The notes under the pieces are model-generated. The model did no database searches. It worked only from the letters and a program-made list of their open reading frames with translations, and had not been told where the DNA came from. From an uncultured Methanobrevibacter sp. (GTDB taxonomy: Archaea > Methanobacteriota > Methanobacteria > Methanobacteriales > Methanobacteriaceae), in contig NZ_CAMVEE010000015.1 of assembly GCF_947166415.1 (NCBI RefSeq), positions 1,413 through 33,412 on the forward strand: a DNA stretch of 32,000 bases, written 5' to 3'. Made by a program: the position numbers and the translations under genes. Of this stretch, positions 990 through 28,436 are shown in pieces (the first letter of the stretch is position 1; every line of letters starts with the position of its first letter).

Positions 990-1205
990 GTATTACTAAA
1001 TTTAAAGAATAATACTAAAAAGTATTACTTTAATAACCTTTATATATGGCTATAACATTTAAATATTAAATGTCAAGCTACAATAATGTTTTGTTAACCT
1101 TTAAATTTAATAAAACTCCCAATTAACTTGATATTACTAAAAACAAATGAAAATAATACTTTTTGTTAATACTCAGTATTTAAATAAACTGGAAAAAAGT
1201 ATTAC
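990..1205 (+). promoter_or_regulatory. Promoter and leader of the Ni/Co ECF transporter operon, with clustered GTAWTAC heptamers
   Basis: Exact GTATTAC at 990-996, 1022-1028 and 1199-1205. One-mismatch copies: ATAATAC 1009-1015 and 1153-1159, ATATTAC 1131-1137, TTAATAC 1166-1172. Box A TTTATATA lies at 1039-1046, preceded by TAATAACC. The string AGTATTACTTTAATAACCTTTATAT is nearly the same as the promoter modules at 25035-25060 and 21235-21260 read on the minus strand. Confidence 0.6.
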
Positions 1206-1228
1206 TTTACATAAATGGAGGAATGAAA

Positions 1229-1867
1229 TTGCATATACCTGACGGATTTATACCTATTGCACAATGTCTAGTATACTATGTAATATTGATTGTTGCATTA
1301 TACTTCTCTGTGAAATGGGCAAGATCTAATTTAGATGAAAAACGTATACCTCTCTTAGCTGTGCTTGCTGCCGGTATCTTTGCAATCATGTCCATGAACA
1401 TGCCAATTCCATTCGGTACAAGTGGACATATGGTTGGGGGAGCATTAGTAGCAATTGTATTCCTTGCTCCTGAAGCGGCTGTTTTAGTATTTACCGTAGT
1501 ACTACTTATTCAAGCTCTCATCTTCGGAGACGGAGGAATTACTGCATTAGGTGCAAATGTATTGAATATGGCAATAATTGGAGGATTTGTTGGATTATAC
1601 ACCTTTAAATTCTTACAAGGAACAATTGGAAAATATCCTGCTGCCGGAATCGGAGCATGGTTAGCTACCGTAATTGCAGCTTTAGCTTGTGCAATTGAAA
1701 TGGCAATAGCTGGAACTTTCCCTGTAAACGTGGGCATTCCATCAATGGTATTATACCACTTCTTTATTGGAATAATCGAAGCAGTATTAACCGTAATCGT
1801 TCTTGTCGCCCTAGACAAATTCAGACCAGATTTGCTTGCATGGAATAAAAGTGAAGGAGATGCATAA
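1229..1867 (+). CDS. cbiM: ECF transporter substrate-capture component CbiM/NikM (Ni/Co)
   Basis: N-terminus ..HIPDGF.. followed by multiple TM helices is typical of CbiM/NikM, and the gene sits in M-N-Q-O order. The ORF track starts at ATG 1223, but GGAGG (1217-1221) is only 1 nt from that ATG. It is 7 nt from TTG 1229. Starting at TTG gives the canonical M-H-I-P-D-G N-terminus, whose N-terminal amine and His2 bind the metal in characterised NikM/CbiM proteins. Confidence 0.85.
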   Translation: MHIPDGFIPIAQCLVYYVILIVALYFSVKWARSNLDEKRIPLLAVLAAGIFAIMSMNMPIPFGTSGHMVGGALVAIVFLAPEAAVLVFTVVLLIQALIFGDGGITALGANVLNMAIIGGFVGLYTFKFLQGTIGKYPAAGIGAWLATVIAALACAIEMAIAGTFPVNVGIPSMVLYHFFIGIIEAVLTVIVLVALDKFRPDLLAWNKSEGDA

Positions 1868-1868
1868 A

Positions 1869-2171
1869 ATGGATAAAAAAGATACATATTTAATTGTTGT
1901 TGCAGTGGTCATTTGTATTGTAATTTGCTGTCTTTCACCATATATTGCATCCGGTGACCCAGATGGTCTTGAAAAATCTGCAGAAGATTCTGGACTTGCA
2001 GAAGACTTCTCAATCGAAGAAATCAAAGGAATTCCTAATGCGGTATTCCCAGATTATGCATTTGCAAACGATCCTGATAACCAAGCATTACAAATTGTAG
2101 CCCTTGTGATAGGTGCAATATTGACCTTGGTAGTAGGATACGGAGTTGCAGAAATTGTTAGAAACAGATAG
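1869..2171 (+). CDS. Small two-TM PDGLE-motif protein, the N component of the Ni/Co ECF transporter (NikN/CbiN-like)
   Basis: About 100 aa with N- and C-terminal TM helices and the motif GDPDGLEK (PDGLE). It lies directly after cbiM. AGGAGA at 1854-1859 abuts ATG 1860, so ATG 1869 (MDKKDTYL) is the better-spaced start. The track ORF from 1836 overlaps the cbiM 3' end. Confidence 0.7.
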   Translation: MDKKDTYLIVVAVVICIVICCLSPYIASGDPDGLEKSAEDSGLAEDFSIEEIKGIPNAVFPDYAFANDPDNQALQIVALVIGAILTLVVGYGVAEIVRNR

Positions 2172-2207
2172 AAATTAAATTATTTAATTTCTATTTTCCC
2201 TTTTTTT
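2170..2207 (+). terminator. Perfect 11-bp palindrome plus T7 tract between the N and Q genes (possible internal attenuator or terminator)
   Basis: AGAAATTAAAT (2170-2180) and ATTTAATTTCT (2182-2192) are exact reverse complements. They are followed by attttccc and TTTTTTT (2201-2207). The structure sits in a 118-nt gap inside the M-N-Q-O gene order. Confidence 0.4.
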
Positions 2208-2289
2208 AAAAGTAATTGAAATTTTCTGAAATTGACATGACAAAATAATAATATATTACTAATTTTTAATATTATAGTAGTGAATAACC

Positions 2290-3120
2290 ATGGTAGACAT
2301 AACGCAGATAATGAGATTTGATGATTTGGCATCAAAAAACAGTCCCATCCACAATCTTGAAGGACGAATAAAATTAATTTCAACCATATTCATAATTCTT
2401 GTTTGCGTTGTTTCAAAAGAGATTTTCATACCCATAATACTGGAAATACTGTTATTGATTATTTTAAAAATAGCCGACTTGTCATACATAGATTCTGCAA
2501 AAAGGCTATTGATGTTGCTTCCTTTCGGTGGAGCAATCATCATATTCCAGCCATTCATTCAGCCGGGAAACATACTCTGGAGTTATTCATGGCTGCATGT
2601 TACTGACGTCGGATTGAATTGGGCGATTCTGCTGCTTGTACGTATGATTGTTTGTTTAACTGCAATCATCATATACTCATCAACAACACCCCTGCAGGAA
2701 ATGGCCAGCTCCTTTAGAAAGCTGAAGATGCCAAGGGATTTGGCTATGATACTGTCAATCATGGTTAGGTTCTTGTTTCTGTTTGTCGATGAACTTGCGG
2801 CAATCAGAAAAAGCCAAAAATCAAGAAACTTCAGTATCCACTCCAAAAACACTCCCTACAAATGGAGAGTGAAGCAGGTCGGATATACAATAGGCATGAT
2901 GTTTTTAAAGTCATATGAACAGGGAGAAAGAGTTCATAAAAGTATGGTGAGCCGTGGCTTTTCCGATGCATCTGAAATGTTCAGCGAAAAGAAATCCCCT
3001 GAACGCAGCGATTACGCTTATCTAATAATAATTATTGTAGTTGTAATAGTCCTTGAAATAATCCTATTCAAATATGGTGGACAATTAGGTTACTTCGGTC
3101 AGAATTTAGCAATTAATTAG
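2290..3120 (+). CDS. cbiQ: ECF transporter transmembrane (T) component CbiQ
   Basis: 276-aa multi-TM protein located between the N component and the ABC ATPase. It has the CbiQ/EcfT-like length, topology and Arg-rich cytoplasmic coupling segment (AAIRKSQKSRNF). Confidence 0.75.
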   Translation: MVDITQIMRFDDLASKNSPIHNLEGRIKLISTIFIILVCVVSKEIFIPIILEILLLIILKIADLSYIDSAKRLLMLLPFGGAIIIFQPFIQPGNILWSYSWLHVTDVGLNWAILLLVRMIVCLTAIIIYSSTTPLQEMASSFRKLKMPRDLAMILSIMVRFLFLFVDELAAIRKSQKSRNFSIHSKNTPYKWRVKQVGYTIGMMFLKSYEQGERVHKSMVSRGFSDASEMFSEKKSPERSDYAYLIIIIVVVIVLEIILFKYGGQLGYFGQNLAIN

Positions 3121-3128
3121 GTGAAATA

Positions 3129-3968
3129 ATGGAACATATACATTTGGAAACAAAAAACTTAACTTTTACATATCCCGACGGTACTCAAGCTTTGAAAAAT
3201 GTAAACATTAAAATCAGAAAGGGAGAAAAGATAGCCATTATGGGACCTAATGGTGCTGGAAAATCAACATTATTCTCACATTTCAACGGTTTGAGCGAAC
3301 CTACCTCTGGCCATGTTGAAGTGGACGGCGAAAAGATAGTTTTTGAAAGGGACGAACTGCTAAAGGTTAGGCAAAAAGTAGGAATAGTGTTCCAGGATCC
3401 AAATGACCAGCTGTTTGCACCTACAGTCAAGGAAGATATTGCTTTTGGACCTATGAATCTTGGTCTTGACTATGATGAAGTCGAAAAAAGAATCAAGGAA
3501 TCCTTGGAAATGGTTGGAATGTCCGGCTTTGAAGACAAGACACCTCACCACTTGAGTGGAGGTCAGCAGAAAAGGGTTGCAATTGCAGGCATTATTGCAA
3601 TGAGACCTGAAATAATGATTCTTGATGAACCGACTGCAGGACTTGACCCTGAAGGTGTTGATAAGGTACTGAACATATTGAATAACCTAAATGAAGAAGG
3701 AATAAGCATCGTCATTTCATCACACGACATAGAGATGGTAAACCACTTTGCATACAAGATATTCGTTTTGTATGGTGGTGAAATAATCGCTGAAGGAGAC
3801 AAGCACCAAATATTTTCAGATAAGGAATTATTAAAAAAAGCTCATTTAAAAGCTCCGATAACTACAGAGATTTTATATAAATTGAAAGAAAATGGATTGG
3901 ATGTTGATACAGAAAAAATCAGCATTGAAGAAACAGTAGAGGAAATATTAAAAGCTAAAAATGATTAA
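3129..3968 (+). CDS. cbiO: ECF transporter ATP-binding (A) component CbiO
   Basis: Walker A GPNGAGKST, ABC signature LSGGQQKRV, Walker B ILDEPTAGLD, H-loop SSHD. AGGTGA RBS at 3119-3124. Confidence 0.9.
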   Translation: MEHIHLETKNLTFTYPDGTQALKNVNIKIRKGEKIAIMGPNGAGKSTLFSHFNGLSEPTSGHVEVDGEKIVFERDELLKVRQKVGIVFQDPNDQLFAPTVKEDIAFGPMNLGLDYDEVEKRIKESLEMVGMSGFEDKTPHHLSGGQQKRVAIAGIIAMRPEIMILDEPTAGLDPEGVDKVLNILNNLNEEGISIVISSHDIEMVNHFAYKIFVLYGGEIIAEGDKHQIFSDKELLKKAHLKAPITTEILYKLKENGLDVDTEKISIEETVEEILKAKND

Positions 3969-4632: not shown

Positions 4633-6651
4633 CTATCCGAATCCTGCTAATTTTCCAATGTTGAAAATCAAGAATGAAACTATATATGCAGTCACTAAAG
4701 TAATGGCACACATAGTTGCCGCCCATTTATAACTGTTTGTTTCCTGTTTGATTGCACCGATAGCTGCGAAACATGGGGTGTACAACAAGGTAAATGCCAT
4801 GAATGAAAACGCGGACAATGGGGTGAAAGTATCATGTACCAAACTGGTAATACCTTCTTCGTCATCCTCTTCCATACCTGCAAGAGTACCGAAGGTTGCA
4901 ACAACAACTTCTTTAGCAGCCAAACCGGCAATGATTGCCACAGCAGCTTGCCAAGTTCCGAATCCTAAAGGAGCAAAGATTGGTGCAATAACGTTACCTA
5001 TCATACCTAATACACTTTGAGCAGATCCGTATTCAACACCCAATGGGAAAATGCTTAATGCCCATAAAACGATTGAACAAGCAAGAATGATTGTACCTGC
5101 TTTTCTTAAGAATCCTTTTACTTTTTCCCAGGTGTGTAATAATACACCTTTGATGGATGGTATTTTATAAGTCGGCAATTCCATAACAAATGGAGTTGAT
5201 AGTCCTTTGAATAATGTCCTCTTAAGGATAGCTGCAACAATAAGTGCAACAGCAATACCTAATAAATAGATTGCAAGCAATACGTTACCTTGATTGTCAG
5301 CGAAAAATGCTCCTATGAAAATAGCATAGATAGGCAATCTTGCAGTACATGACATGAACGGAACAAGCATCATAGCAAGCATACGGTCCCCTTCATTTTC
5401 CATGGTTCTTGTTGCCATGATAGCTGGAACACCACATCCGAATCCTAAAATCATAGGGATGAAAGCTTTACCGTGAAGACCTACAATCTTGTGCATGAGT
5501 TTATCTAAAGTGAAAGCAGCCCTTGCCAAGTAACCACAGTCCTCCAATATACTTAAGAACAGGAACATGAGAATAATAATTGGCAAGAAAGTGAGAACAC
5601 CACCTACTCCACCTATGATACCATCACAGATGAATGATGCAAGATATTCGTTTGCAATAAATCCTCCAATGAATTCACCTAAAGCGCCGAATGCCTGGTC
5701 AATCATATCCTGGAAAGGAGCTCCGATAGTAAATGTTAATTGGAACATCACCCACATTATAATAATAAATATGAATGGGGCTAAAATCCTGTTAGTCACA
5801 ATCTTATCAATTTTATCAGTAGTAGTCTCTTTTTCAACAGCAGGTCTTTTAACAGCTTCGGCCATTAACCCATCGATAAATGCATATCTTGCATTTGCAA
5901 TGACCTCTTCAGGACCTTCCTTATAAACATCATGCAAATGTTTACTTACTTTATCCACTTCAACCAATATTTTGGATCCATAACTGGACTGTTGAACTTT
6001 TTGAATTACAATAGAATCTTTTTCTAATAATTTGATGGCAGTCCAGATTGAAGGAACATCCAATAGATTGCTGTCCTTTTCAATAACGGCCTGAAGCTCA
6101 GATAAATGTCCTTTAATATCATTGCTGTAAGCTAACTTTTCACTAGAGTCAACAGGATTTTTAGCGGCTTTTTCAACAGCATTCAATAAATCTTCAAAAC
6201 CGTCTTTTGTTTTCGCATTAATTTCCACAACTGGGAACCCTAAAAGTTCACTCATCAATGGAATATCAATTATGTGCTCTTTTTTCTTTGCAAAATCATT
6301 CATGTTAAGTGCCATTACCAAGTTAGCACCCAATTCCATCATTTGAACTGTTAAATATAAATTACGCTCCAGATTAGCAGCATCAACCACATTGACAATC
6401 ACATCAGAATCGTCATCTACAATGAAATCTCTTGAAACGATTTCTTCCATAGAATGAGCGCTTAATGCATAATTACCTGGCAAATCGACAACATCATACT
6501 CATAACTTCCATGTTTAAAATGACCTTCCGCCCTTTCAACGGTTTTTCCAGGCCAGTTACCTACATGTTGACGCATACCAGTTAATTGATTGAATACAGT
6601 AGTTTTACCCACGTTAGGGTTTCCTGCTAATCCTACAATTAATTTTGTCAT
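4633..6651 (-). CDS. feoB: Ferrous iron transporter FeoB (N-terminal GTPase plus membrane permease)
   Basis: G1 motif GNPNVGKTT, G3 DLPG and G4 NMND, followed by a long polytopic C-terminal domain. 672 aa. GGGAG RBS. Confidence 0.92.
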   Translation of the reverse strand: MTKLIVGLAGNPNVGKTTVFNQLTGMRQHVGNWPGKTVERAEGHFKHGSYEYDVVDLPGNYALSAHSMEEIVSRDFIVDDDSDVIVNVVDAANLERNLYLTVQMMELGANLVMALNMNDFAKKKEHIIDIPLMSELLGFPVVEINAKTKDGFEDLLNAVEKAAKNPVDSSEKLAYSNDIKGHLSELQAVIEKDSNLLDVPSIWTAIKLLEKDSIVIQKVQQSSYGSKILVEVDKVSKHLHDVYKEGPEEVIANARYAFIDGLMAEAVKRPAVEKETTTDKIDKIVTNRILAPFIFIIIMWVMFQLTFTIGAPFQDMIDQAFGALGEFIGGFIANEYLASFICDGIIGGVGGVLTFLPIIILMFLFLSILEDCGYLARAAFTLDKLMHKIVGLHGKAFIPMILGFGCGVPAIMATRTMENEGDRMLAMMLVPFMSCTARLPIYAIFIGAFFADNQGNVLLAIYLLGIAVALIVAAILKRTLFKGLSTPFVMELPTYKIPSIKGVLLHTWEKVKGFLRKAGTIILACSIVLWALSIFPLGVEYGSAQSVLGMIGNVIAPIFAPLGFGTWQAAVAIIAGLAAKEVVVATFGTLAGMEEDDEEGITSLVHDTFTPLSAFSFMAFTLLYTPCFAAIGAIKQETNSYKWAATMCAITLVTAYIVSFLIFNIGKLAGFG

Positions 6652-6763: not shown

Positions 6764-6925
6764 ATTAGGTTAACCTAAACATAATTTATTATTATGATTT
6801 TATGATATATAAATATTTAGGCATACCAAATAATTTAAAATTTAGGTACGCCTAAAAATTAGAAAGGTTTATATACTATGATGATCAACATTTAATACAA
6901 GTGATGAAATTTAGGCACACCTAAA
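6764..6925. promoter_or_regulatory. Divergent promoter region with four iron-box-like palindromes (TTTAGG-N4-CCTAAA)
   Basis: ATTAGGTTAACCTAAA 6764-6779, TTTAGGCATACCAAAT 6816-6831, TTTAGGTACGCCTAAA 6841-6856, TTTAGGCACACCTAAA 6910-6925. Box A for feoB lies on the minus strand around 6803-6818. A canonical AGAAAGGTTTATATA at 6861-6875 on the plus strand points away from feoB. The first site matches 13 of 14 positions of the start of the classical DtxR consensus, TTAGGTTAGCCTAA (quoted from memory). Confidence 0.65.
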
Positions 6926-7125
6926 TTATGCCTAAACATTGCTTTAACAAACATTATTTATTAGTCAAAAAACAATAAAATCTCCAAATATAGACAAATA
7001 TTAAATTAGCTTTCACAATTTTCTAATTTAATATTCGGGAAATCTTTGGACGGGATTTCCAAAAACACGCAATTGGTGTTTAACTCTCCTCCATATATTA
7101 AACACCAATTAATCCCCTCTTTTTT
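6898..7125 (+). ncRNA. Candidate iron-box-controlled small RNA, copy 1
   Basis: Plus-strand BRE/TATA at 6861-6875, operator 34 nt downstream, and no credible ORF. A conserved 25-nt core ATTAGCTTTCACAATTTTCTAATTT (7005-7029) differs by 1 nt from the paralog at 17113-17137. Hairpin GGAAATC/GATTTCC at 7038-7060. Terminal hairpin GGTGTTTAA (7075-7083) / TTAAACACC (7098-7106) with loop CTCTCCTCCATATA, followed by T6 (7120-7125). The 5' end is inferred, not observed. Confidence 0.5.
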
Positions 7126-11211: not shown

Positions 11212-11344
11212 AGTAAACCCCACAATTATTCAATATTATATTATTGTTTTAACTCAATAATTATGCTTTTGAAAGTAATAAAAACTTTATTAATTAGTAT
11301 TACCAACCCCAATAATATCAAAAAACGATTTGCAGGTTATTAAA

Positions 11345-12775
11345 ATGAAAAATAAGCACGATTTAAGCAATAATAATGTGATACCACAATATAATATCCT
11401 TAAACAAAATTACACTCCTGAGGAAAAAATTATTTTAAATGAAATCCGTGAAACATTAGTGGACATGGCAGTCTCAAGCGGTGAAAATTTCCAAGCCGAC
11501 GAGGAAAAGCTGTACAGTGACATAAAATCATTTCTGTTCAACAGACTGTCCGGCAACATATCTAATGACTACCTACATGAATTATCTGGAAAATTACTTC
11601 GAGACATAATTGGATATGGGAAAATCGATTCATTGATTCAGGACGATGATCTAGAAGAAATAATGGTAATTGGAGTCAATAAGCCCATTTTTGTCTATCA
11701 CAGAAAATACGGTATGATGAGAACAAATGCCGAATTCGAAAATGAGCGGGAGCTGTTGGATCTGATTGATTCCATGGCGCGCCAAATCAATAGGCGAATC
11801 GATCAGGAATCACCAATTTTAGACGGCAGATTGATGGACGGTTCAAGAATCAATGCAACAATTCCCCCAGTTTCGGCAGATGGACCCTCCTTAACCATCC
11901 GTAAATTCAAAAAAGACCCATTGACCATCATTGATTTGATAAAATCAAAAACGATTTCCCTCGAATTGGCTGCATTTTTCTGGCTGTGCTTTGACGGTTT
12001 GGGAGTGAAATCTGCAAATGCAATCATCTCAGGAGGGACAAGTTCCGGCAAAACAACGACATTGAATGCATTATCAGCATTTATAAATCCAAAGGAAAGA
12101 ATTATCACGATTGAGGATACATTGGAACTTCAAATACCTCATGAACATGTTATAAGAATGGAAACAAGGCCTCCCAACACTGAAAACAAAGGAGAACTGA
12201 CTATGGATGACCTGGTCAAGAATTCCCTTAGGCAAAGACCTGACCGAATAATTGTTGGTGAAGTCAGGGCTAATGAAGCTACAACATTATTCACCGCATT
12301 GAATACCGGCCATTCAGGATTTGGAACCCTTCATTCAAACAGTGCTCGTGAAACCATCACCAGACTAACGACCGAACCCATGTCCGTTCCAAAGATAATG
12401 ATTCAAGCCATCGATTTTATTATAATGCAAAGCAGAATCTACGCTCCCTCCGGTGTCGCCTACAGGAGGATAAGCGAAGTTGCAGAAGTGGTGGGGATTG
12501 AGGAAGACACCATACAGTTAAACAGGATATACGAATGGAATCCTGAAAAGGACATTATTGAAAATGTTGGGATAACCAGCAAAACATTAACTCAGATAGC
12601 AAATTTGAGCGGCAAATCATTATATGAGCTTTCAAAGGAAATTGAAAACAGAAAACTTATCTTAAAACATATGCTGAATCATAAAATCCACAACGTAAAC
12701 GATGTCAATGCAGTTCTGGCATTATACTATGACAATCCCCAAAAAGTCCTGAACAGAGTAATATTAAACAGGTGA
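11345..12775 (+). CDS. Type II/IV secretion-family ATPase (archaeal type IV pilus/archaellum FlaI/PilB-like)
   Basis: Walker A GGTSSGKTTTLNAL, the RQRPDRIIVGEVR box, and the His box GHSGFGTLHSNS. The first ATG is at 11345; the track start at 11330 is TTG. Confidence 0.85.
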   Translation: MKNKHDLSNNNVIPQYNILKQNYTPEEKIILNEIRETLVDMAVSSGENFQADEEKLYSDIKSFLFNRLSGNISNDYLHELSGKLLRDIIGYGKIDSLIQDDDLEEIMVIGVNKPIFVYHRKYGMMRTNAEFENERELLDLIDSMARQINRRIDQESPILDGRLMDGSRINATIPPVSADGPSLTIRKFKKDPLTIIDLIKSKTISLELAAFFWLCFDGLGVKSANAIISGGTSSGKTTTLNALSAFINPKERIITIEDTLELQIPHEHVIRMETRPPNTENKGELTMDDLVKNSLRQRPDRIIVGEVRANEATTLFTALNTGHSGFGTLHSNSARETITRLTTEPMSVPKIMIQAIDFIIMQSRIYAPSGVAYRRISEVAEVVGIEEDTIQLNRIYEWNPEKDIIENVGITSKTLTQIANLSGKSLYELSKEIENRKLILKHMLNHKIHNVNDVNAVLALYYDNPQKVLNRVILNR

Positions 12776-14793: not shown

Positions 14794-14877
14794 TTTAGGC
14801 ATTCCTAAAATTAATCACTAATTATAATATTCATCTCAGACTATATAAATGTTTCTAAATTTTTAGGTTTACCTAAA
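14794..14877 (-). promoter_or_regulatory. Third operator-TATA-operator module (iron-box-like), pointing toward 14421
   Basis: TTTAGGCATTCCTAAA 14794-14809 and TTTAGGTTTACCTAAA 14862-14877. On the minus strand, AGAAACATTTATATA (plus 14842-14856) lies between them. Spacing and orientation match the modules at 6841-6925 and 17203-17289. Confidence 0.55.
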
Positions 14878-17020: not shown

Positions 17021-17230
17021 AAAAAAATAGATAATAGGTGTTTAAAATTGAGGTGATTTTTAAACACCGAAGAGTTATATGGAAAATTTGGCAGATAATT
17101 TTCCGAAATATCAAATTAGAAAATTGTGAAAACTAATTCGATATTTTTAAAGATTTTGGAGATTGTATATTCGACTGATAATATACGTGTTAAGAGAAAA
17201 AATTTAGGCGTGCCTAAATTTCTGTTCTCA
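17021..17230 (-). ncRNA. Candidate iron-box-controlled small RNA, copy 2 (inverted paralog of 6898-7125)
   Basis: Minus-strand CGAAACCTTTATATA (plus 17253-17267) with an operator 34 nt downstream (17203-17218). Conserved core at 17113-17137 and AATCTCCAAA at 17155-17164. Hairpin GGAAAATT/AATTTTCC at 17081-17104. Terminal hairpin 17037-17068 whose minus-strand loop reads AATCACCTCAAT, followed by T7 (plus A7 at 17021-17027). No credible ORF. Confidence 0.5.
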
Positions 17231-17289
17231 TATAATTAGTAGTTGGCCATAGTATATAAAGGTTTCGGTATTTTTTAGGCATGCCTAAA
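17203..17289 (-). promoter_or_regulatory. Operator-TATA-operator module (iron-box-like) driving the copy 2 RNA
   Basis: TTTAGGCGTGCCTAAA 17203-17218 and TTTAGGCATGCCTAAA 17274-17289 flank the box A at 17253-17260. Confidence 0.6.
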
Positions 17290-18917: not shown

Positions 18918-19033
18918 ATTATCAGTATTAGATATCTAGTTATGGTTTAAAAAAGTTTTTGCAAATATTATTGAAAAATTTAATTAATAGTAAAAAGAGA
19001 ATTATTAATGATTATATTTATAGGAAGATAATA

Positions 19034-20812
19034 ATGACTCGTATTTCAATTTTAGACAAAGACCGATGTCAGCCAAAAAAATGTGATTATCTCTGTATTC
19101 ATTACTGTCCAGGTGTTAGAATGGATGAGGACACCATAGTAATTGATGAAGATACTAAAAAACCGCTGATATCTGAAGAATTATGTGAAGGATGCGGTAT
19201 CTGTACCAACAGATGCCCATTTGATGCGGTTACCATTATCAACTTGCCTGAAGCCGCCGGCGATCCGATACACAGATTTGGTCCGAACCAATTTGAACTG
19301 TTTGGACTTCCTACACTTGAAGAGGGAACAGTATTGGGTCTTTTAGGTCAGAACGGTATTGGAAAATCCACAATAATGAATATCCTGGCAGGCAACTTAA
19401 TACCAAACTTTGGAGACTTCGAAAATCCTCCTGAAAACTGGGATAAGGTGATTGAATACTACAAAGGCTCAGCACTTCAAAAGTATTTCCAGGATTTGTC
19501 CGAAGGCAATGTTAAAACCATCTTAAAACCACAGATGGTCGACAAGCTTCCAAAAGTTGTTAAAGGTAAAGTAAGAGACCTGCTCACCAATGTAAATGAA
19601 AGGGACAAGCTTGACTACGTTACAAAAGAATTGCAGCTTGAAAACGTTTTGGACAGAAAAATGGAAAACCTGAGTGGAGGAGAACTTCAAAGGGTTGCGA
19701 TAGCTGCAACAGTGCTTAGGGAAGGTGACTTCTACTACTTCGACGAACCAACATCCTGGCTTGACGTGTCACAAAGGCTTAATGCTGTAAAGGTAATCAG
19801 GTCTCTGGCCGAAGAGGGAAAAAGCGTTTTGGTAATTGAGCACGACCTTGCTACATTGGATGCTCTTTCAGACAACATACATATCCTATACGGTACTCCG
19901 GGCGGATATGGTGTAGTGTCCGGAAGAAAAGGAGTTCGTTTAGGAATCAATGCTTACATCAAAGGATTTTTGGCTGAAGAAAACGTCAGAATCAGAAGAA
20001 ACGCCATTGAATTTACAATAAGGCCGCCTACTCCAGAAGATGAAGGCGAAGCGATTGCAAGCTACACAGACATCCGCAAGGATTATGACGGATTTGAATT
20101 GAGTGCCGACGAAGGTGAAATATTCTATGACGAAATCGTGACCGCATTCGGATCAAACGGTATCGGTAAGACCACATTTGCAAAGATGCTTGCAGGCGTT
20201 GAAGAGCCGACCTCAGGAGAAGTAGATGAGGAAGTTACAATCGCATACAAACCTCAATACATAGTTACAGATTTTGAAGGCAGTGTAAGCGACTTTTTAT
20301 ACATGAACGCACCAAGTTACGGAAGCAAAATCTTTGAAAGTGAAATTATGACTCCTTTCGGATTGAACGACATGCTCGACAAGCCTGTCAAAGGCTTGAG
20401 TGGAGGGGAACTTCAAAGACTAGCTATTGCTTCAACACTTGCAGCGGATGCTGAAATCTATCTTTTTGATGAACCGACCGCATTTTTGGATGTTGAACAG
20501 AGGTTAATAGCTGCAAGAGTAATCAGAAAAATGATTGAAAGTAGAAATGCCGCATCACTTATCGTTGATCACGATATCGTATTTATCGATTACATCTCAG
20601 ATAGGGCAATGGTATTTGACGGTACACCTGGTTTGAACGGTCATGCTTCAAAGCCAACTGACTTGAGAAATGCAATGAACGAATTTTTAGGAAATCTCAA
20701 CATTACATTCAGAAGAGATAAAGAAACAAAAAGGCCTAGAGTTAACAAACTCGACAGTTACAAAGACCGTGAACAAAAAGAAAAAGGAGAATATTATTAC
20801 TTGTCAGATTAA
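19034..20812 (+). CDS. ABCE1 / RNase L inhibitor-type ribosome recycling ATPase
   Basis: N-terminal di-cluster ferredoxin domain ([15 protein letters not shown]...[20 protein letters not shown]). Two ABC cassettes follow (GQNGIGKST / [12 protein letters not shown] / FDEPTSWLD and GSNGIGKTT / [12 protein letters not shown] / FDEPTAFLD). ATG 19034 gives the conserved MTRI start. The track extension from 18959 is not supported. Confidence 0.92.
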
Positions 20813-20904
20813 ATATTCCCTATTTTTTATCTTTTTTTAAAAACTTCCATCCAATATAGATATCAAAAACACGCAATACTTCATTATTAATAGAAAAATA
20901 GTTT

Positions 20905-21211
20905 AAAAAAAAATAGTTATTAAAGTTGAGGAGGAACCTTAATAACTATAGAGAGGCTAAATTATTACAATAGCATGACAAACGACATCTGACTGGCTGA
21001 CTAATGTAATAATTATTCTTAAATACTATGAAGCATGAAAGATCACTCACCATCTTTCAAACATTAGTGATTAGTTCACTAATCTTTGAAAGGCAATGAA
21101 AGATAGAGTGTAAATAGCTATTACTAGCTATTTACGTTAGTTAGTTATATGACCAATTTTAAAATTGAGGTATGGACATATAAATTATCAAACAGGGAAA
21201 TTTGATAATCT
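20905..21211 (-). ncRNA. Candidate structured non-coding RNA, unit A (stand-alone, own promoter)
   Basis: Minus-strand order: promoter module (21205-21265); 5' hairpin TTATCAAA/TTTGATAA (21185-21208); hairpin GTAAATAGCTA/TAGCTATTTAC (21110-21135); long hairpin CTTTCAAA-ATTAGTGA...TCACTAAT-TTTGAAAG (21054-21092); terminal hairpin 20913-20949 with minus-strand loop GGTTCCTCCTCAACT; then T8-9 (plus A-run 20905-20913). The architecture is shared with unit B. The 5' end is inferred. Confidence 0.5.
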
Positions 21212-21265
21212 ATACTATACTACCTAGTAATAACCATATAAATGTTATTAAAGTATTACTATTCA
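21205..21265 (-). promoter_or_regulatory. Duplicate of the Flp-like operon promoter module, facing unit A
   Basis: GATAATCTATACTATACTACCTAGTAATAACCATATAAATGTTATTAAAGTATTACT matches 25005-25060 with about 5 mismatches over about 56 bp. On the minus strand it reads GTAATAC, 10 nt, TTTATATG, GTTATTAC. Confidence 0.6.
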
Positions 21266-21534
21266 TAACAAGCTTTAAATTAGAAATAAAGATGTCAGTT
21301 TCTTTTAAATAAATTAAAAATATGCCCCAACCCAAATTATTCGAAAAGGACAGCCCAACATTCCCCGACGAAAAAAAATAATAAATTAAAAAATCATTAA
21401 AATAATCTTAAATTAAAAAATACTTCCTTAAAATAATTCGCAAATACAAACATGAACTTTAAATAGATATTTCATTAAAAAGATAAAAATAAAGGAGTAA
21501 AATTTGATTTTATCCCCAAACATATTAAAAAATA

Positions 21535-21566
21535 AAATGTAATACTTTTTTAAAAAATAATACTAC
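21535..21566. repeat. 32-bp element GTAATAC-N11-ATAATACTAC (copy 1 of 2)
   Basis: GTAATACTTTTTTAAAAAATAATACTAC (GTAATAC 21539-21545, ATAATAC 21557-21563) is nearly identical to 25342-25369, with the same 11-nt spacing. Confidence 0.55.
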
Positions 21567-21646
21567 ATAGAATAATATTTTTTTATAAAAAAGTAATATA
21601 ATTGTTGAACCATCCAAGAATACAAATTGATTCCAAAAATTAATTT

Positions 21647-21996
21647 AAAAAAAATAGCTATTAAAGACAAGAGGAGCTGATTACTTTAATAGCTATTGTA
21701 GACAGTGAAAGAAACCCATATATGATCATACAAATCTCTTTTTTGATTATTAATTATCTTACATTGATGGAGAAAATAAGCAATATCAATTGGTTATGCC
21801 AACAACCAATATTGCCCGGCTAATGATGAATTATCAACATAAAGATAATTAATTGAAAAATAATCAAAATATTGCTATTCTAACTATTTTTCTAACATTA
21901 GTGATTAACACACTAATCTTAGAAAGACAGTTGAATAATGAGAGTAAATAGCAATAAGCTATTTACAATCATCATATCTGACTATTTTTTAAAACT
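21647..21996 (-). ncRNA. Candidate structured RNA, unit B (3'-UTR position of the Flp-like operon)
   Basis: It begins directly after the mvhD-like stop (21997-21999) with no intervening T-tract. Hairpin GTAAATAGC/GCTATTTAC at 21944-21966. Long hairpin TTTCTAA-ATTAGTG...CACTAAT-TTAGAAA at 21889-21925. Terminal 14-bp perfect hairpin AATAGCTATTAAAG/CTTTAATAGCTATT (21653-21697) with minus-strand loop TAATCAGCTCCTCTTGT, then T8 (plus A-run 21647-21654). Confidence 0.5.
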
Positions 21997-22404
21997 CTAT
22001 TTTAATTCCAATGGCCCAAGTTTTGAGAGAGTTTTATGAAATTCTTCCATAGTTCTCTGAAATTTTTCACCTTCGGATGCTGAAATCCATTCATGACGGA
22101 ATCTCTCTTTTTCAATCCCAAACTCTTCAAGAATATCCTCTACAATTTTTGACCTTCTGGACCATTTGTAGTTACCTGCGTCATAATGGCAGTCACCAAT
22201 ATGGCACCCACCTACAAATACTCCATCGGCACCTTCCTGAAATGCTTTGAAAATCATTGAAGGGTTGATTCTTCCAGAGCACATTACACGAATAATTCTG
22301 ATGTTTGGAGAGTATTGCATACGTGCAGTTCCTGCTGTATCAGCACCACCATAACAACACCAGTTACATAATAAACCTACGATTTTTAAATCATCTGCCA
22401 TCAA
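21997..22404 (-). CDS. MvhD-like iron-sulfur protein (methyl-viologen-reducing hydrogenase delta subunit family)
   Basis: 135 aa. The pattern C.WC.Y.GAD.AG..R.QY....R.IRV.CSGR......AF..GADGV.V.GCH.GDCHY is diagnostic of MvhD/FlpD-type proteins. Confidence 0.85.
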
Positions 22405-22412
22405 ACCACCTC

Positions 22413-23552
22413 TTATAATTCTGTTTTTTCTGGACTGTATAATGGAGGTTTGATATCATCTAAAACTCCAGCTACATAACCAGTTCTATTATAGTATTTT
22501 TTCTGCAATTTATCGAAAATCAATGAAACAGGAATGTCCATCGGACAAACATCATCACATTGGCCACAATCCACACAACTGAAACTCATGTGTGATAGCC
22601 TTACTCCCTGGAACGCTATTGGGAGAGGAGGGATGTTTGCTTCATCCTTGAAGTATGGTTTGTTCAATTCACAGTTTTCGAAGCACCAACAGATCGGACA
22701 AATGTCACGACATGCATAACAGCTAATACATCTGCTCCATTCATCCATTTCACTAACCAGTGGATAAGTGGCATCCTGATTCTTTTTAGCCATTTTGATC
22801 ATGATATTTTCAACTTTTGATCTGCCTTCAACAGCAGGCTCGGAAGGAGACTTGGTTTCAAGAATTCCTGCCTTTTTTGCACCATCTATTAATTCTTGGC
22901 CTTTTTCATCATTGATTTCTATGAATGTCCAGCCGTCCTCTGCTCCCCAGTTTCCACAGGCGATGTTTGCCTTTCTTGGGATTTTCACATCACATCTCTG
23001 GCAGTTTTTACGGCGTCCGTAACCTTCATTTTCAAGGTCATGGATTTTGACTGCCTCTTCGGAACCGTCTGCAAGTTCAATGATAAACTGTCCCTTATCG
23101 ATTTCTTCACTTATGACATCATCAGGATTGGCTTCATAGAACAGGTCAATCATCTCTCTTCCGCTAACAGGAGATACTGTTCCACCACAATTTAAACCAA
23201 TCATGTAAATATTATCCTTATTAATTTTGTGTCTAACTATAAGCTCTTCAACAGCCCTCATATCACATGGTTTGACTGTAAATGCAACTTTTTTATCAAA
23301 GAAATATTTTTGAACAAGATCACCAATCATTGTTGGAGCACAATGATAAGATCCTGCAGTTTTTAATAAATCCTGTGAATCAGTGATGAAAACAGGAAAA
23401 GCATCATAAACATCATCTTGAGGACTTAATGCCAAAACACCATCAACCAATCCTTCATCCAGCAAATATTTGAGAATGCTGGTTACGGCCCCTCCGCATT
23501 CACCAGCTTCATGAATTTCATTATTTTGAGATTTTGCTAAAACATAACTCAT
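22413..23552 (-). CDS. FdhB/FrhB-family F420-reactive flavo-iron-sulfur subunit with C-terminal 2x[4Fe-4S] ferredoxin motifs
   Basis: N-terminal [21 protein letters not shown] and AGS.Y are FrhB/FdhB-like. The C-terminal motifs are [16 protein letters not shown] and [16 protein letters not shown]. Confidence 0.8.
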
Positions 23553-23561
23553 ATTATCCCT

Positions 23562-24575
23562 CTATTTGTTTAATTCCCCGATAACTTCAATAATACCTAA
23601 ATTATCAGACCCAATTACGCAATTGAAATTTTGTACTTCTCCCATTGCATTTACAAAAGACCCGTCTTGTTCCAACCATGTTTTAACTGGAACAACAATG
23701 TTTGAGATTTTTGTAGTATCATTTTCACAGCAGGCAAAAGTGATAATTTTAGATATTTTAGTAAAATCATAATCGAATTCATCTACAACATCGTCATTGA
23801 AAACCAGCAGCAATTTAGTATTATCAAACAACTCCACCATTTCATCTGCGGATTTTGAATCAATGATATCTAAAGCACCTTTTGTATTAGGTTTACTGAA
23901 AACAGGTAGGGCTTTACAATTTAAAGATTCTATTTTATCCAAATCACCCGCTTCATCCACATAATTAAATACAACGACTGAAGAATCATCAATCTCTCCT
24001 TTGAATTTATCTAAAAATTCTTGAACTGAAGAGTTGGAAATTTCATCGGCAATATTGAAAGTAACTGCATTTTCATTTTTGCTTAAGGCATATATCTTGG
24101 CATCATTCTGTTTCGCATGAACAATTCTTCTTCCAATTAACGGATTTTCATACAACAAATCACCAATTACAAATACTTTGCTTGCATTTGCAATCTCATC
24201 ATATGAGGCCACATCCTCAAAATTCTTCAAATCATTTGCATAAAATCCAATATTAAAACCGTTAGATTCTGCGAAATCCTTAATTGCAGCAATATCTTCA
24301 ACACTACAATTACCAGAACAAATTACAGATACGTCTGATGCATTAGCTGATTTAATTTCATTTGAAGCGTCTGCAATTGAATTAGTCAAATCAACATTTT
24401 CGAATTTATTTTTAAAACAATCAATGGAATTTCTTCCATTCAAACAGTTTTTACCAGCGTTAACTGGATGCCTTTTATAGGGAAAAGTCCCAACAATTTC
24501 TTCACCATCTAAAATCACATTTATACCACAACCAACACTGCATGAAGGGCATAACGTGTGTTTAATTTCAAACAT
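23562..24575 (-). CDS. Truncated FdhA-like molybdopterin-oxidoreductase-family protein (N-terminal [4Fe-4S] domain retained, catalytic motif not seen)
   Basis: CPSCSVGCGINV...PVNAGKNCLNGR is the N-terminal Fe-S motif of formate dehydrogenase alpha / Mo-bisPGD enzymes. At 337 aa it is about half the usual length. No Cys-His (or TGA-encoded Sec-His) dipeptide is present anywhere in the translation. Confidence 0.65.
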   Translation of the reverse strand: MFEIKHTLCPSCSVGCGINVILDGEEIVGTFPYKRHPVNAGKNCLNGRNSIDCFKNKFENVDLTNSIADASNEIKSANASDVSVICSGNCSVEDIAAIKDFAESNGFNIGFYANDLKNFEDVASYDEIANASKVFVIGDLLYENPLIGRRIVHAKQNDAKIYALSKNENAVTFNIADEISNSSVQEFLDKFKGEIDDSSVVVFNYVDEAGDLDKIESLNCKALPVFSKPNTKGALDIIDSKSADEMVELFDNTKLLLVFNDDVVDEFDYDFTKISKIITFACCENDTTKISNIVVPVKTWLEQDGSFVNAMGEVQNFNCVIGSDNLGIIEVIGELNK

Positions 24576-24592
24576 AATACATCACCAAATCT

Positions 24593-24943
24593 TTAAAAAG
24601 CAGCATTCAAATTTATTGTAGAACTAATATCCTCTTTAAATAGCTCATAACTTGACTGTCTAGTCAATGAAATCATATTCATCAACATAGTGCATGCATG
24701 ATGGAAAACGATTTGAGAACATTCTTGTTGGATGAATTCTTCAAAAATGTCTAATCTGATCAATCCTTCAACCTTAAAATTTAAATTCAAATTTGAGGAG
24801 GATTTTAAAACAATAATATAGTTTATATCCCTTTGGTCAGTATTTGTATATTCGACAGCCCAATCAACATCCAAATTTAAATTAGTATTTTTGGGATTGT
24901 AATCTTCTCTAATCATGGCCATTCTTTCTACAGTAATTTCCAT
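24593..24943 (-). CDS. Hypothetical 116-aa protein, first gene of the Flp-like operon
   Basis: ATG 24943 (MEITVERMAM...) is preceded by GGAGAG 6 nt upstream. The track start at 24985 is a TTG with no RBS. No motif was recognised. Confidence 0.5.
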   Translation of the reverse strand: MEITVERMAMIREDYNPKNTNLNLDVDWAVEYTNTDQRDINYIIVLKSSSNLNLNFKVEGLIRLDIFEEFIQQECSQIVFHHACTMLMNMISLTRQSSYELFKEDISSTINLNAAF

Positions 24944-25004
24944 ACTACTCTCTCCAATTATTAAAATAATCTCCAAATTATTCAAATTAAAAGAATTAAT
25001 TAAA

Positions 25005-25063
25005 ATAATCTATACCCTACTAACTAGTAATAACCATATAAAGGTTATTATAGTATTACTCTC
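25005..25063 (-). promoter_or_regulatory. Promoter module of the Flp-like operon
   Basis: The minus strand reads AGTAATACTATAATAACCTTTATATGGTTATTACTAG. GTAWTAC lies at plus 25053-25059, 10 nt from box A (plus 25035-42), and the inverted repeat TAATAACC/GGTTATTA straddles the TATA box. The module sits about 60-100 nt upstream of ATG 24943. Confidence 0.65.
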
Positions 25064-25337: not shown

Positions 25338-25369
25338 AGTAGTAATACTTTTTATAAAAATAATACTAC
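25338..25369. repeat. 32-bp element GTAATAC-N11-ATAATACTAC (copy 2 of 2)
   Basis: GTAATACTTTTTATAAAAATAATACTAC (GTAATAC 25342-25348, ATAATAC 25360-25366). It lies between the hcgG-like 3' end and the Flp-like promoter. It also forms an imperfect palindrome, AAGTAGTA...TACTACTT. Confidence 0.55.
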
Positions 25370-25402: not shown

Positions 25403-26899
25403 CTAAACTATTGTTAATGCATCAGGCACTTTCTTCAAAATACTGTCCCTAACTGGAATCATTGTTGAAGAAGCAATTGAAAAGTCAGCACTATCTGCTG
25501 CAGCCTTATCATCCTTTTCAGCAATGATAGTTGCATTTAATTCATTTTGCAAGTTATCAACAGTATTTTTCAATACCCAATCGTCGATGTCTGAAATTAC
25601 AATTTCATCAACGAAACTATCCAATTCATTAGCGATTACCCATGAAATAAACCTTCCACCATGTAGCGCTATTGTATTTCCCTCGGCCAATTCAACAATA
25701 TCCTTTAATGTATGCTTTAACTCAATGTTTTGATACATTCTGGAATTAACCAACGTTGCCCAATGGGCATCACCAACATGATACTCACCGATTTTTCTTG
25801 GATATACATAGTCAGGCCCTGCAATCTTAACGGCAGTTGTTAATGACAATAAGTCAGGTCTTTGGACCGGAAGGCCCCTATTTGGGAATTCCTCGTTAAT
25901 AATCTGAATAATTCTTGGAAGTCCGAATTTTCCTCTCTTGGCAGTTCCAGGCTCAAATCCACACATATATCCATGATGATTTTTTTGAAAACCTGTAATT
26001 ACCATATTCAAACCGGATCTCAGGCCCACCCTTACTTCATGTTCATAAGCTCCATTTGTCGCAACCACCTTTCCTGGAGACAATATTCTTGCAGCAGCAA
26101 TTGTCTTTGCAAATGCCTCTGAAGTGTTTTCACATCTATTGAACGGACCTCCTTCAACAACAATAACATCTGCACCAATTTCAATGGATTTTTCAAATCC
26201 AGTGATTACTTCATCATAACCGTCACCAACAAACATGATTGATTCCAAGCCCCTTCCATACTTTTTAGCCAGATTTGCAATATCTTCAGCTTCCCTTAAT
26301 GGAGCCGCATGACCATCCCCTGTCTGTTCACAGGTGACATTTACCGCAACGGAGGAAGACAATTTAACCCATTCCTCTTTATCATCTTTTTCGGCGAGTT
26401 CCTTATCAATCAATCTTTCATGAATTCTTCCACGAGGACATTCAGTAAATGCAGGACCCTTATTATAACATTCGCCGCCACACCCACTGATGTTTTTAGG
26501 AAGTCTCATCGCACCATTTTCACCGAAGTGATCCAAATCCAGAGGCACATCAACAATTTCATGTACCTTCCTCATCACTTCAACACCTCTCATTCCGAAT
26601 TTTTCGGCTATGTCTGAAAAAGCGTATGCACAAATATGAATTGGAGCACCAAACATATCGGCCAATCGGCAATTACCCAACAAATCCATTAACTCCAAAT
26701 CTGATGCACAAGTTCCAACGACTACCTCTGTTAAATCGCAGCCTAACGGAAATCTTTTAAATTGCATTCCCAATTTCATTGTTTCTTCAAATGACAATTC
26801 TGAAATTGCATCAACTACGGATGTTACATCCTTATTCATTTTTGATATTTCAATTGCAGCTTCATCATCATAAACAGCTTTTTTAATCAAATCATACAT
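25403..26899 (-). CDS. 498-aa protein divergent from hmd, probably the FeGP-cofactor biosynthesis protein HcgG (fibrillarin-like C-terminal domain)
   Basis: It lies divergently adjacent to hmd and near hcgABC. A Cys cluster CGGECYNKGPAFTEC is present, along with a central barrel-like region (VGDGYDE...VVEGGPF). The C-terminal Rossmann-like segment (IALHGGRFISWVIANELDSFVDEIVISDID) fits the reported fibrillarin-like domain of HcgG. The assignment rests on context and impression, not on alignment. Confidence 0.45.
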   Translation of the reverse strand: MYDLIKKAVYDDEAAIEISKMNKDVTSVVDAISELSFEETMKLGMQFKRFPLGCDLTEVVVGTCASDLELMDLLGNCRLADMFGAPIHICAYAFSDIAEKFGMRGVEVMRKVHEIVDVPLDLDHFGENGAMRLPKNISGCGGECYNKGPAFTECPRGRIHERLIDKELAEKDDKEEWVKLSSSVAVNVTCEQTGDGHAAPLREAEDIANLAKKYGRGLESIMFVGDGYDEVITGFEKSIEIGADVIVVEGGPFNRCENTSEAFAKTIAAARILSPGKVVATNGAYEHEVRVGLRSGLNMVITGFQKNHHGYMCGFEPGTAKRGKFGLPRIIQIINEEFPNRGLPVQRPDLLSLTTAVKIAGPDYVYPRKIGEYHVGDAHWATLVNSRMYQNIELKHTLKDIVELAEGNTIALHGGRFISWVIANELDSFVDEIVISDIDDWVLKNTVDNLQNELNATIIAEKDDKAAADSADFSIASSTMIPVRDSILKKVPDALTIV

Positions 26900-26972: not shown

Positions 26973-27097
26973 GTATTACTGAAAATTAATTAAATCAATT
27001 GTATTACAAAATAAAAAGTAATACTAAACTATAATATTCCAAACAAATAGTATTATCAGTATTACTAAAAATAATAAAATAATAGAAAAAATAATAC
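26973..27097. promoter_or_regulatory. Dense GTAWTAC heptamer cluster in the divergent hcgG-hmd control region
   Basis: GTATTAC at 26973-26979, 27001-27007 and 27059-27065. GTAATAC at 27018-27024. Near copies: GTATTAT 27050-27056, ATAATAC 27091-27097, GTAATAA 27182-27188. GTATTAC-N10-GTAATAC forms an inverted pair at 27001-27024. Confidence 0.6.
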
Positions 27098-27228
27098 TAA
27101 ATAAAGACCAATGTAAAGATTTAAATAGTACTACTTTTTAAATATAAATTATTACTGCATAGAATAAAAAACCATAATTAAGTAATAAAAAAGCAATATG
27201 ACACATTTAGACCATGCAGTAAAACTTT

Positions 27229-28360: not shown

Positions 28361-28436
28361 AAGTGTTTAAAAAAAAGAACCCTTAAAAAATAAGTTAATT
28401 TTTATACTTATGAAAAATTGGAGATTGGTGTTAAAA

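Follow-up and report, generated by a model that had tools for sequence, protein, structure and literature searches.

The DNA analysed here, an AT-rich stretch (about 35% G+C) of 32,000 nucleotides from an uncultured Methanobrevibacter sp. that we call the window, carries the short palindrome AGTAWTACT, with the heptamer GTAWTAC as its core, upstream of a cbiMNQO-type energy-coupling factor (ECF) transporter, upstream of an elpXABC operon and of a candidate non-coding RNA (unit A), and in the divergent spacer between hcgG and hmd. The palindrome is a conserved operator of a nickel-limitation regulon, its architecture is unlike that of characterised NikR boxes, and its regulon reaches core methanogenic electron flow. 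We read AGTAWTACT as the operator unit of a nickel-responsive transcription factor that represses this regulon, most probably the ribbon-helix-helix (RHH) nickel sensor NikR, and give this reading a probability of roughly 70%. The original prediction for the window had joined the Ni/Co transporter, an 'Flp-like' operon, a non-coding unit and the hcgG-hmd region in one regulon and had proposed a nickel-responsive regulator. Both proposals have gained support, as the motif lies upstream of these operons in dozens of species, the further genes linked to it all belong to nickel or metal acquisition and a pair of units is found at nikR in another phylum.

The units stand singly or, typically, in pairs 31-33 bp apart, and are placed just upstream of the B recognition element (BRE) and TATA box, bracket or abut the TATA box, or lie in 5' leaders. 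In the mechanism we propose, with sufficient nickel, the Ni-loaded regulator would occupy these sites and block initiation or elongation of transcription. The repressed set would comprise cbi/nikMNQO for the nickel ECF transporter, hmd for the nickel-free [Fe]-hydrogenase together with hcgG, the F420H2-dependent Elp complex replacing the [NiFe]-hydrogenase Mvh, and unit A as a small non-coding RNA. Under nickel scarcity, the regulator would leave its sites and all these genes would be expressed together, while arrays of units would lead to cooperative occupancy.

Distribution of the palindrome in the window and across Hmd loci

The window contains 13 exact copies of GTAWTAC, 12 intergenic and one coding, against an expectation of 2.8 for the whole window (0 of 100 shuffles got to 13). 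When the 6.0 kb of intergenic DNA are modelled separately, 0.7-1.3 copies are expected under Markov orders 0-3, and per-segment dinucleotide shuffles give an expectation of 0.73, with none of 2000 shuffles getting to the observed 12. GTAWTAC takes first rank among the over-represented intergenic 7-mers of the window and resides in five of its 24 intergenic regions. This enrichment, the control palindromes and the tally of gene neighbours given below speak against chance, composition and a generic promoter element, all three of which were rejected. All 12 intergenic positions of the original prediction are exact matches, and the intergenic excess that it had made its touchstone under AT-rich modelling is clearly present (12 versus about one expected). 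It was also right in counting one coding copy only, inside feoB; this exact match within the gene call begins at 4847 rather than 4846 (4847..4853) and is incidental. GTATTAC and GTAATAC had been taken as one palindrome with a flipped centre. The palindromic nature holds, but the two are mutual reverse complements, so that the W is an orientation mark only, and the real unit is the 9-bp A-GTAWTAC-T. The spacings listed at the time (N6, N10, N12, N15, N19) have to be replaced, since exact copies in the window are separated by N25, N21, N10 and N34.

A string of 25 nt (AGTAWTACTWTAATAACMTTTATAT) occurs three times in exact form, at 1021-1045 on the plus strand and at 21236-21260 and 25036-25060 on the minus strand, and did not appear once in 100 shuffles. 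It covers the promoters of cbi, unit A and elp, in each of which the heptamer stands exactly 10 nt before TTTATAT, just as had been proposed for a long string shared by three promoters with the heptamer 10 nt upstream of box A. At cbi/nik, a first operator unit (tGTATTACt, 990..996) forms a 32-bp pair with the unit at 1022, and a degenerate unit with one mismatch (aTAATAC, 1009..1015) can be read from the sequence between the two exact ones. The core promoter (1021..1045, plus strand) consists of AGTATTACT, 9 nt and the TATA-like TTTATAT (1039-1045), an arrangement also present in locus L031. A further unit, again AGTATTACT, is situated in the cbiM leader (1198..1206). It lies 24 nt ahead of the start codon, with GGAGG just downstream; such a leader cluster at -20 to -70 is kept in 22 cbiM orthologues. 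The cbiM-cbiN-cbiQ-cbiO genes themselves (1223..3968, plus strand; NCBIfam) are predicted to encode a nickel-specific transporter (nikMNQO) because of the operator upstream.

The elp promoter module (25036..25060, minus strand) and that of unit A (21236..21260, minus strand) both combine AGTAATACT with a TATA box. They are paralogous, sharing a 56-nt block of 91% identity and, 286-289 nt away, a second block with the arrangement GTAATAC-N11-aTAATAC, while the DNA in between has diverged; the two promoter copies are therefore not independent. One copy of this 'block 2' (21539..21563) flanks a TATA-like TTTTTTAAAAAA, and the other (25342..25366) lies 37-61 nt past the hcgG stop codon. A cluster of operator units occupies the divergent hcgG-hmd spacer (26973..27097), with exact units at 26973, 27001, 27018 and 27059 and one-mismatch partners at 27050 (GTATTAt) and 27091 (aTAATAC). 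Downstream of it, a conserved alignment block (27120..27155, plus strand) contains the putative hmd TATA box TTTAAATAG (27120-27128) and, close to where transcription is expected to start, the near-unit tTATTAC (27149-27155); the positions of both TATA box and start are predicted from the sequence.

Scanning a genome collection for Hmd yielded 77 loci, most of them from distinct Methanobrevibacter species and a few from Methanobacterium. Locus-wide counts were made on 78 Hmd loci, amounting to 1.1 Mb (190 kb non-coding and 915 kb coding). GTAWTAC occurs 383 times in the non-coding and 48 times in the coding DNA, numbers that are not independent events because the loci share ancestry; 23 palindromic heptamers of matched composition have 11-49 non-coding matches each. 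Most loci feature a heptamer cluster 220-350 nt upstream of hmd, and many feature pairs about 2.0/2.3 kb and 5.7/6.0 kb upstream of hmd, corresponding to the elp and unit-A regions. Many also have a further cluster about 8 kb downstream, in the upstream region of an orthologous cbiMNQO operon, where the promoter-proximal and leader-proximal arrangement of the window recurs. In an alignment of the hmd upstream region from 13 species, invariant columns fall within the AGTAWTACT units, while the mean column identity of the whole alignment is 49%. Retention of this kind, with the units kept between flanks that have diverged, is characteristic of a functional site.

The presence of the motif in orthologous promoters, on which the original prediction staked its regulon, was assessed from sites within 500 nt upstream of a gene. 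Sites precede 56 of 60 hcgG orthologues, 54 of 79 members of the hmd family (which includes second copies), 22 of 23 cbiM/nikM and all 20 elpX orthologues. By our own tally, nearly all non-coding sites fall within the hcgG, hmd, cbiM and elpX regions or the region of the non-coding units. Other recurrent neighbours are a nicotianamine-synthase-like gene (5 of 5 copies), a NikA/OppA-type binding protein (three sites), CobN followed by a DUF2162 transporter, and an FmdE-domain protein divergent from cbiM. The lone heptamer upstream of a FlaI-like ATPase (11297..11303), originally counted among the regulon sites, was dropped, as only 1 of 8 orthologues has a site; it is probably incidental.

In M. 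thermautotrophicus (49% G+C), the divergent elpX-hmd spacer of 624 nt contains exactly two heptamers, one directly after the TATA box of elpX (TTTATATAT-GTAATACT) and the other 25 nt ahead of the ATG of hmd, within its leader; upstream of mvh in this M. thermautotrophicus locus there is no heptamer. In Methanothermococcus, one heptamer precedes the hmd start by 20 nt.

The clear paralogy of the elp and unit-A promoters raises the question whether the copies are mere by-products of duplicated promoter cassettes, or else a generic strong-promoter element, without a nickel-specific role. However, 19 intergenic regions of the window are without the motif, whose position relative to the TATA box varies and which is kept while its flanks diverge. 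Its recurrence at nickel genes across genera and phyla contradicts such an origin, and we consider it extremely improbable.

Anatomy of the operator unit and its likely regulator

A logo of 414 distinct sites confines the information to A-GTAWTAC-T, with A at -1 in 80% and T at +1 in 78% of the sites and none in the flanks. The orientation of the centre base is random with respect to neighbouring units, all four combinations being seen at 32-bp spacing. Because the information is limited to 9 bp and the centre is randomly oriented, AGTAWTACT is a genuine palindrome of 9 bp. Between neighbouring units, the distance from start to start has its main peak at 31-33 bp across species (85 pairs), with lesser peaks at 9-11, 41-43 and 52-54 bp; when one mismatch is allowed, 30% of the sites have a partner at 31-33 bp, against 4-5% with a partner at 18 or 21 bp. 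The window itself holds three 32-bp pairs (990/1022, 27018/27050 and 27059/27091). Spacing varies between genera, since the heptamer pairs upstream of elpX in the Methanobacterium loci L059, L061 and L062 are 57 bp apart, not 32 bp. A spacing of 31-33 bp would call for an extended binding mode, for bending of the DNA or for contacts between tetramers.

Operators of the Lrp/FL11 or TrmB type were rejected as models. Lrp operators are palindromes of 13-15 bp and the TrmB consensus reads TACT-Nx-AGTA or TATCAC-N5-GTGATA, whereas only 9 bp are informative here, AGTA and TACT appear in reverse order and the centre is a single base pair. Judged by established structures of RHH proteins on DNA and of NikR, the 9-bp palindrome, with half-sites 5 bp apart within one major groove, suits an RHH dimer of the kind that forms each of the DNA-binding domains in the NikR tetramer (PMC7055735).

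Among bacterial NikR operators, that of E. coli reads GTATGA-N16-TCATAC and the delta-proteobacterial type GTGTTAC-N13/14-GTAACAC. The H. pylori operator is TATWATT-N11-AATWATA. GTAWTAC resembles the half-site GTRTKAY and has one mismatch to GTGTTAC, so the one-base distance from the GTGTTAC/GTAACAC box noted in the original prediction stands; so does its remark that the spacing is unlike a simple N13-14 NikR box, no exact pair being found at the N13/14 distance. Like the bacterial operators, AGTAWTACT is located at nickel uptake genes and, in the Nitrososphaerales-type contigs and contig L203 described below, the motif also stands at nikR; occasional N11 (block 2) and N13 (contig L203) arrangements are seen. 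GTATTAC is, moreover, the left half of the site predicted at hydAB of D. desulfuricans, where GTaTTAC-N13-GTAACAC precedes an Fe-only hydrogenase, and the logic of that prediction, repression of a nickel-free hydrogenase by nickel, would be common to both systems (PMC545781). In contrast to the bacterial operators, each unit is a perfect 9-bp palindrome that can stand alone, pairs are spaced 31-33 bp apart (some three helical turns, where the bacterial ones have two), promoters often hold arrays of three to six sites, the context is an archaeal TATA/BRE promoter and the regulon includes core genes of methanogenic electron flow.

A metagenome scan with the bare DNA pattern AGTAWTACT-N22-24-AGTAWTACT returned at least 120 loci. 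About half of the matches listed lie inside open reading frames or tandem satellites and were treated as unrelated. The satellites (L084, L085, L146, L149, L158, L168 and L179), with periods of about 9, 27, 32 or 64 nt and up to 83 copies of GTAWTAC per contig, fit the pattern because of their repetition and not because of a nickel context. For the intergenic half, a Pfam census of 84 adjacent outward-facing reading frames among the matches listed gave P-type ATPase (6), NicO/NiCoT nickel permease (5), CbiM (5), NikR_C (5), CobN (4), SBP_bac_5 (3), NAS (2) and FmdE (1). Sites upstream of nickel uptake genes are thus found both in the cbiM orthologues mentioned above and beside a pattern searched for blindly. 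A heavy-metal P-type ATPase, about 32% identical to one of Methanobrevibacter, has a pair directly upstream in five contigs (L101, L103, L156, L183 and L187) and is a possible further nickel transporter of the regulon; a second operator pair is often present there, too.

Searching with E. coli and P. horikoshii NikR (tblastn) detected nikR in 8 of 120 loci among the matches listed. In all eight, the palindrome pair is located directly upstream, 7-70 nt from the nikR start, and in several it lies between divergently oriented nikR and a nickel transporter gene (a NiCoT-sized reading frame, or a cbiM-like one in L119). The pair brackets a TATA-like box, with the nikR start 7-30 nt past the second unit. 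These contigs have a G+C content of 45-59%, at which the pattern has a negligible probability of arising by chance. Of the relatives of this NikR subgroup, only two are named; they come from a Nitrososphaerales archaeon and an unclassified soil archaeon, which would place it in Nitrososphaerales-type soil archaea, another archaeal phylum. On the AT-rich contig L203, GTAATAt-N13-GTATTAC ends 1 nt before a nikR-cbiM operon, an exception with N13 spacing.

Several observations weigh against NikR, or against repression by it. For Methanobrevibacter, NikR is assigned as the probable binder by analogy: in homology searches, P. horikoshii NikR retrieved Thermococcales only, two clusters looked up among 150 NikR representatives at 50% identity name only Altiarchaeota, Atribacterota and Aminicenantales, and the contigs of AT-rich-looking representatives were not from Methanobacteriales. 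None of the 78 Hmd loci has a NikR gene within 10 kb of hmd. The classical geometry of inverted half-sites at N13/14 or N16 does not apply: exact unit pairs at 19-23 bp were not found in any of the loci across species, and the dominant 31-33 bp is one helical turn more than in the E. coli NikR-DNA complex. The upstream regions of nikR in Pyrococcus are without the heptamer, and the motif is therefore not general to archaeal NikR. The Hmd loci are related by descent, and their raw counts exceed the number of independent events. Finally, the -45 position immediately upstream of the BRE in three promoters would suit an activator as well.

It is thus conceivable that the operator of this nickel (or H2/energy) regulon is bound in Methanobacteriales by a regulator other than NikR, for instance an uncharacterised small RHH or helix-turn-helix protein. 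The absence of a NikR gene near any site in the Methanobacteriales loci, the spacing, the Pyrococcus nikR regions and the response of hmd to H2 supply (PMC3087415) all point in this direction. NikR is, on the other hand, nearly universal in this order, being encoded in 99 of 102 genomes (PMC10617489). The identical paired palindrome stands at nikR in at least eight independent contigs of another phylum, several times divergent from a transporter, contig L203 carries the motif at a nikR-cbiM operon, and the regulon is devoted to nickel acquisition throughout. We therefore think that a different regulator is improbable and retain NikR.

Whichever protein binds, the direction of its effect has to be deduced from the position of the units, which is mixed. 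They stand 10 nt upstream of the TATA box at the cbi, elp and unit-A promoters, abut it on the downstream side at elpX of M. thermautotrophicus, bracket it at nikR of Nitrososphaerales and lie in leaders near the ribosome-binding site at cbiM and, in two genera, at hmd. The fixed upstream position is typical of archaeal activators, and a factor acting there under nickel limitation by recruiting TFB/TBP would agree with the abundance of the NikR1 protein under nickel limitation only (PMC12350162) and with the ability of H. pylori NikR to activate (PMC7055735). However, the fixed geometry stems in part from the paralogy of the elp and unit-A promoters, and the sites at elpX of M. thermautotrophicus, in the cbiM and hmd leaders and around the TATA box at nikR are in repressor-type positions. 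We infer that binding needs nickel and that its effect is repression, because placement varies around and downstream of the core promoter as it does for archaeal repressors; activation is the less probable mode, though one to be taken seriously.

At cbiM, and at hmd of M. thermautotrophicus and Methanothermococcus, the copies 20-30 nt before the start codon could also suggest that the heptamer works as RNA, as a leader element for a protein or small RNA near the ribosome-binding site. Most copies are located upstream of TATA boxes, though, and hence are not part of those mRNAs, and the random centre orientation together with the symmetric flanks (A at -1, T at +1) is as expected for recognition of double-stranded DNA. 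A function at the RNA level is accordingly very hard to sustain.

The nickel switch, the elp operon and the non-coding units

The choice of methanogens between [NiFe]-hydrogenases and the iron-only Hmd has been known since the late 1990s to be under nickel control. Work of 2025 then showed that nickel levels realistic for the environment rewire the complete pathway of electron flow, with Hmd and Elp. Transcription of hmd and mtd is nickel-regulated (PMC3087415), and proteomics of nickel-limited M. marburgensis found Hmd, ElpXABC, a NikR1 homologue and CobN1 increased, with CobN1 and a NikR homologue among the proteins produced under nickel limitation only (PMC12350162). In that switch, Hmd plus Mtd and ElpABC-Hdr replace Frh and Mvh, and the genes concerned, the location of hmd beside elpXABC and the subunit make-up are common to M. 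marburgensis and the window. Induction of Elp by nickel limitation has been reported for M. marburgensis and M. thermolithotrophicus only. The work on M. marburgensis (PMC12350162) covers proteomics and structure, without naming a cis-element or a mechanism of regulation; here the cis-element is defined from sequence alone. PMC10617489 cites Rodionov et al. (2006) for NikR sites predicted in front of nikMNQO in the genomes of eight methanogens; as cited there, cbiMNQO-type systems under NikR control in methanogens are nickel transporters, as predicted for the one in our window, and for the transporter the motif may already be in print. In the searchable literature we found no NikR site tied to hmd, hcg, elp or a non-coding RNA, and no account of how a methanogen senses nickel and coordinates the Hmd/Elp switch. 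With AGTAWTACT, there is now a concrete and conserved cis-element for it, together with an obvious candidate for the regulator. The motif may also serve to tell nickel from cobalt ECF transporters by sequence and to find nickel-acquisition genes (nicotianamine-like metallophore synthesis, CobN/DUF2162 systems, P-type ATPases), and it bears on the trace-metal control of methanogenesis in the rumen and in digesters.

The 'Flp-like' operon next to hmd (21997..24985, minus strand) corresponds, as judged from its sequence, to elpXABC (formerly flpECBD), Elp being the F420-dependent electron-donating protein. It comprises elpX (24593-24985), elpA (23562-24575), elpB (22413-23552) and elpC (21997-22404) in an order and with a Pfam content as in the M. 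thermautotrophicus locus. The candidate ElpX (130 aa) is without a family match, ElpA (337 aa) matches the N-terminal Fdh-alpha/NuoG segment only and resembles an FdhA lacking the molybdopterin domain, ElpB (379 aa) is FrhB/FdhB-like and ElpC (135 aa) VhuD/MvhD-like, in agreement with the subunit definitions for M. marburgensis, where the Elp complex is encoded beside hmd and takes over from the [NiFe]-hydrogenase Mvh when nickel is limiting (PMC12350162).

A non-coding stretch of 1.2 kb (20813-21996) separates elpC from the RLI gene (18959-20812, plus strand). It contains unit A (20830..21215, minus strand), a structured RNA candidate with its own elp-type promoter and operator that ends in a hairpin and a T-run, and its paralogue unit B (21610..21996, minus strand), which follows the elpC stop directly and is probably a 3' untranslated region or a processed RNA. 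Both units are kept in 13 loci of the same Methanobrevibacter clade and have in common a core of about 95 nt that folds into two hairpins with 29 pairs, seven of them with compensatory changes. Rfam returned nothing credible at the gathering threshold for the window or at E<=1 for 20780-22020, and a tRNA scan of the window found none. A nickel-controlled small RNA is a reasonable reading of the sequence of unit A. An operator of a metal regulator in front of a structured RNA is reminiscent of Fur-RyhB and of the small RNAs of H. pylori NikR (nrr1, nrr2, isoB; PMC7055735), which differ from units A and B in that the latter are limited to one clade and known from their sequence only.

We know of no mechanism by which the [NiFe]-hydrogenases Frh and Mvh are downregulated. 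One could speculate that a single NikR-type operator runs the whole nickel-free electron-flow programme of hydrogenotrophic methanogens, including, in this clade, a 'nickel-sparing' small RNA induced by nickel limitation (unit A, with its paralogue in the elp 3' region) that would aid the shutdown of Frh and Mvh in a Fur-RyhB-like manner, and that archaeal NikR has a binding mode spanning three helical turns. In its entirety we regard this extended scheme as doubtful.

Further features of the window and its relatives

In eight loci (L035, L037, L038, L040, L041, L045, L065 and L071), block 2 heptamers are located 57-107 nt past the hcgG stop, and the position of elpX is taken by a different, convergent gene (family f30). 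As block 2 is kept there without an adjacent elpX, it may drive an antisense or independent transcript rather than elp.

The hcgG/hmdC gene for biosynthesis of the iron-guanylylpyridinol (FeGP) cofactor (25403..26899, minus strand; TIGR03958, 722 bits) is divergent from two tandem hmd genes (27292-28305 and 28566-29582, plus strand), which are followed by hmdB/hcgA (29702-30700, plus strand). Hmd of the window has its best genome matches at 94% identity, with 86-88% for M. thaueri and M. millerae; by this similarity, the DNA belongs to a Methanobrevibacter of the rumen type. The two tandem hmd genes encode proteins that are 100% identical, and the 260-nt spacer upstream of the second is devoid of heptamers; the gene may have been duplicated very recently, or the second copy may be an effect of the assembly. 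An open reading frame at 28410-29582 would fuse an extension of 52 aa (the added part being 28410-28565) onto the second copy, and a public record holds a protein of 390 aa, the same length as the product of 28410-29582, with 100% identity over Hmd. In L004, L008, L017, L022 and L031, a short reading frame with its own Shine-Dalgarno sequence (MVLSKLKEK...) is present upstream of hmd and may be a leader peptide or an upstream open reading frame.

The remaining genes of the window to be mentioned are feoB (4633-6651, minus strand) and that for the FlaI-like ATPase (11330-12775, plus strand). A second, unrelated palindrome of 16 bp, TTTAGGY-NN-RCCTAAA (e.g., TTTAGGCATGCCTAAA), is found upstream of feoB (6816-6936) and at 14794-14809, 17203-17218 and 17274-17289. 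Its half GCCTAAA occurs nine times in intergenic DNA, where 0.9 copies are expected, and is clustered upstream of feoB. This palindrome may serve as an operator of the iron type (DtxR-like), in which case it would agree with the iron cofactor of Hmd; in L004, L008 and L017 it is situated at the hcgG promoter, where the window has GTATTAC (26973).

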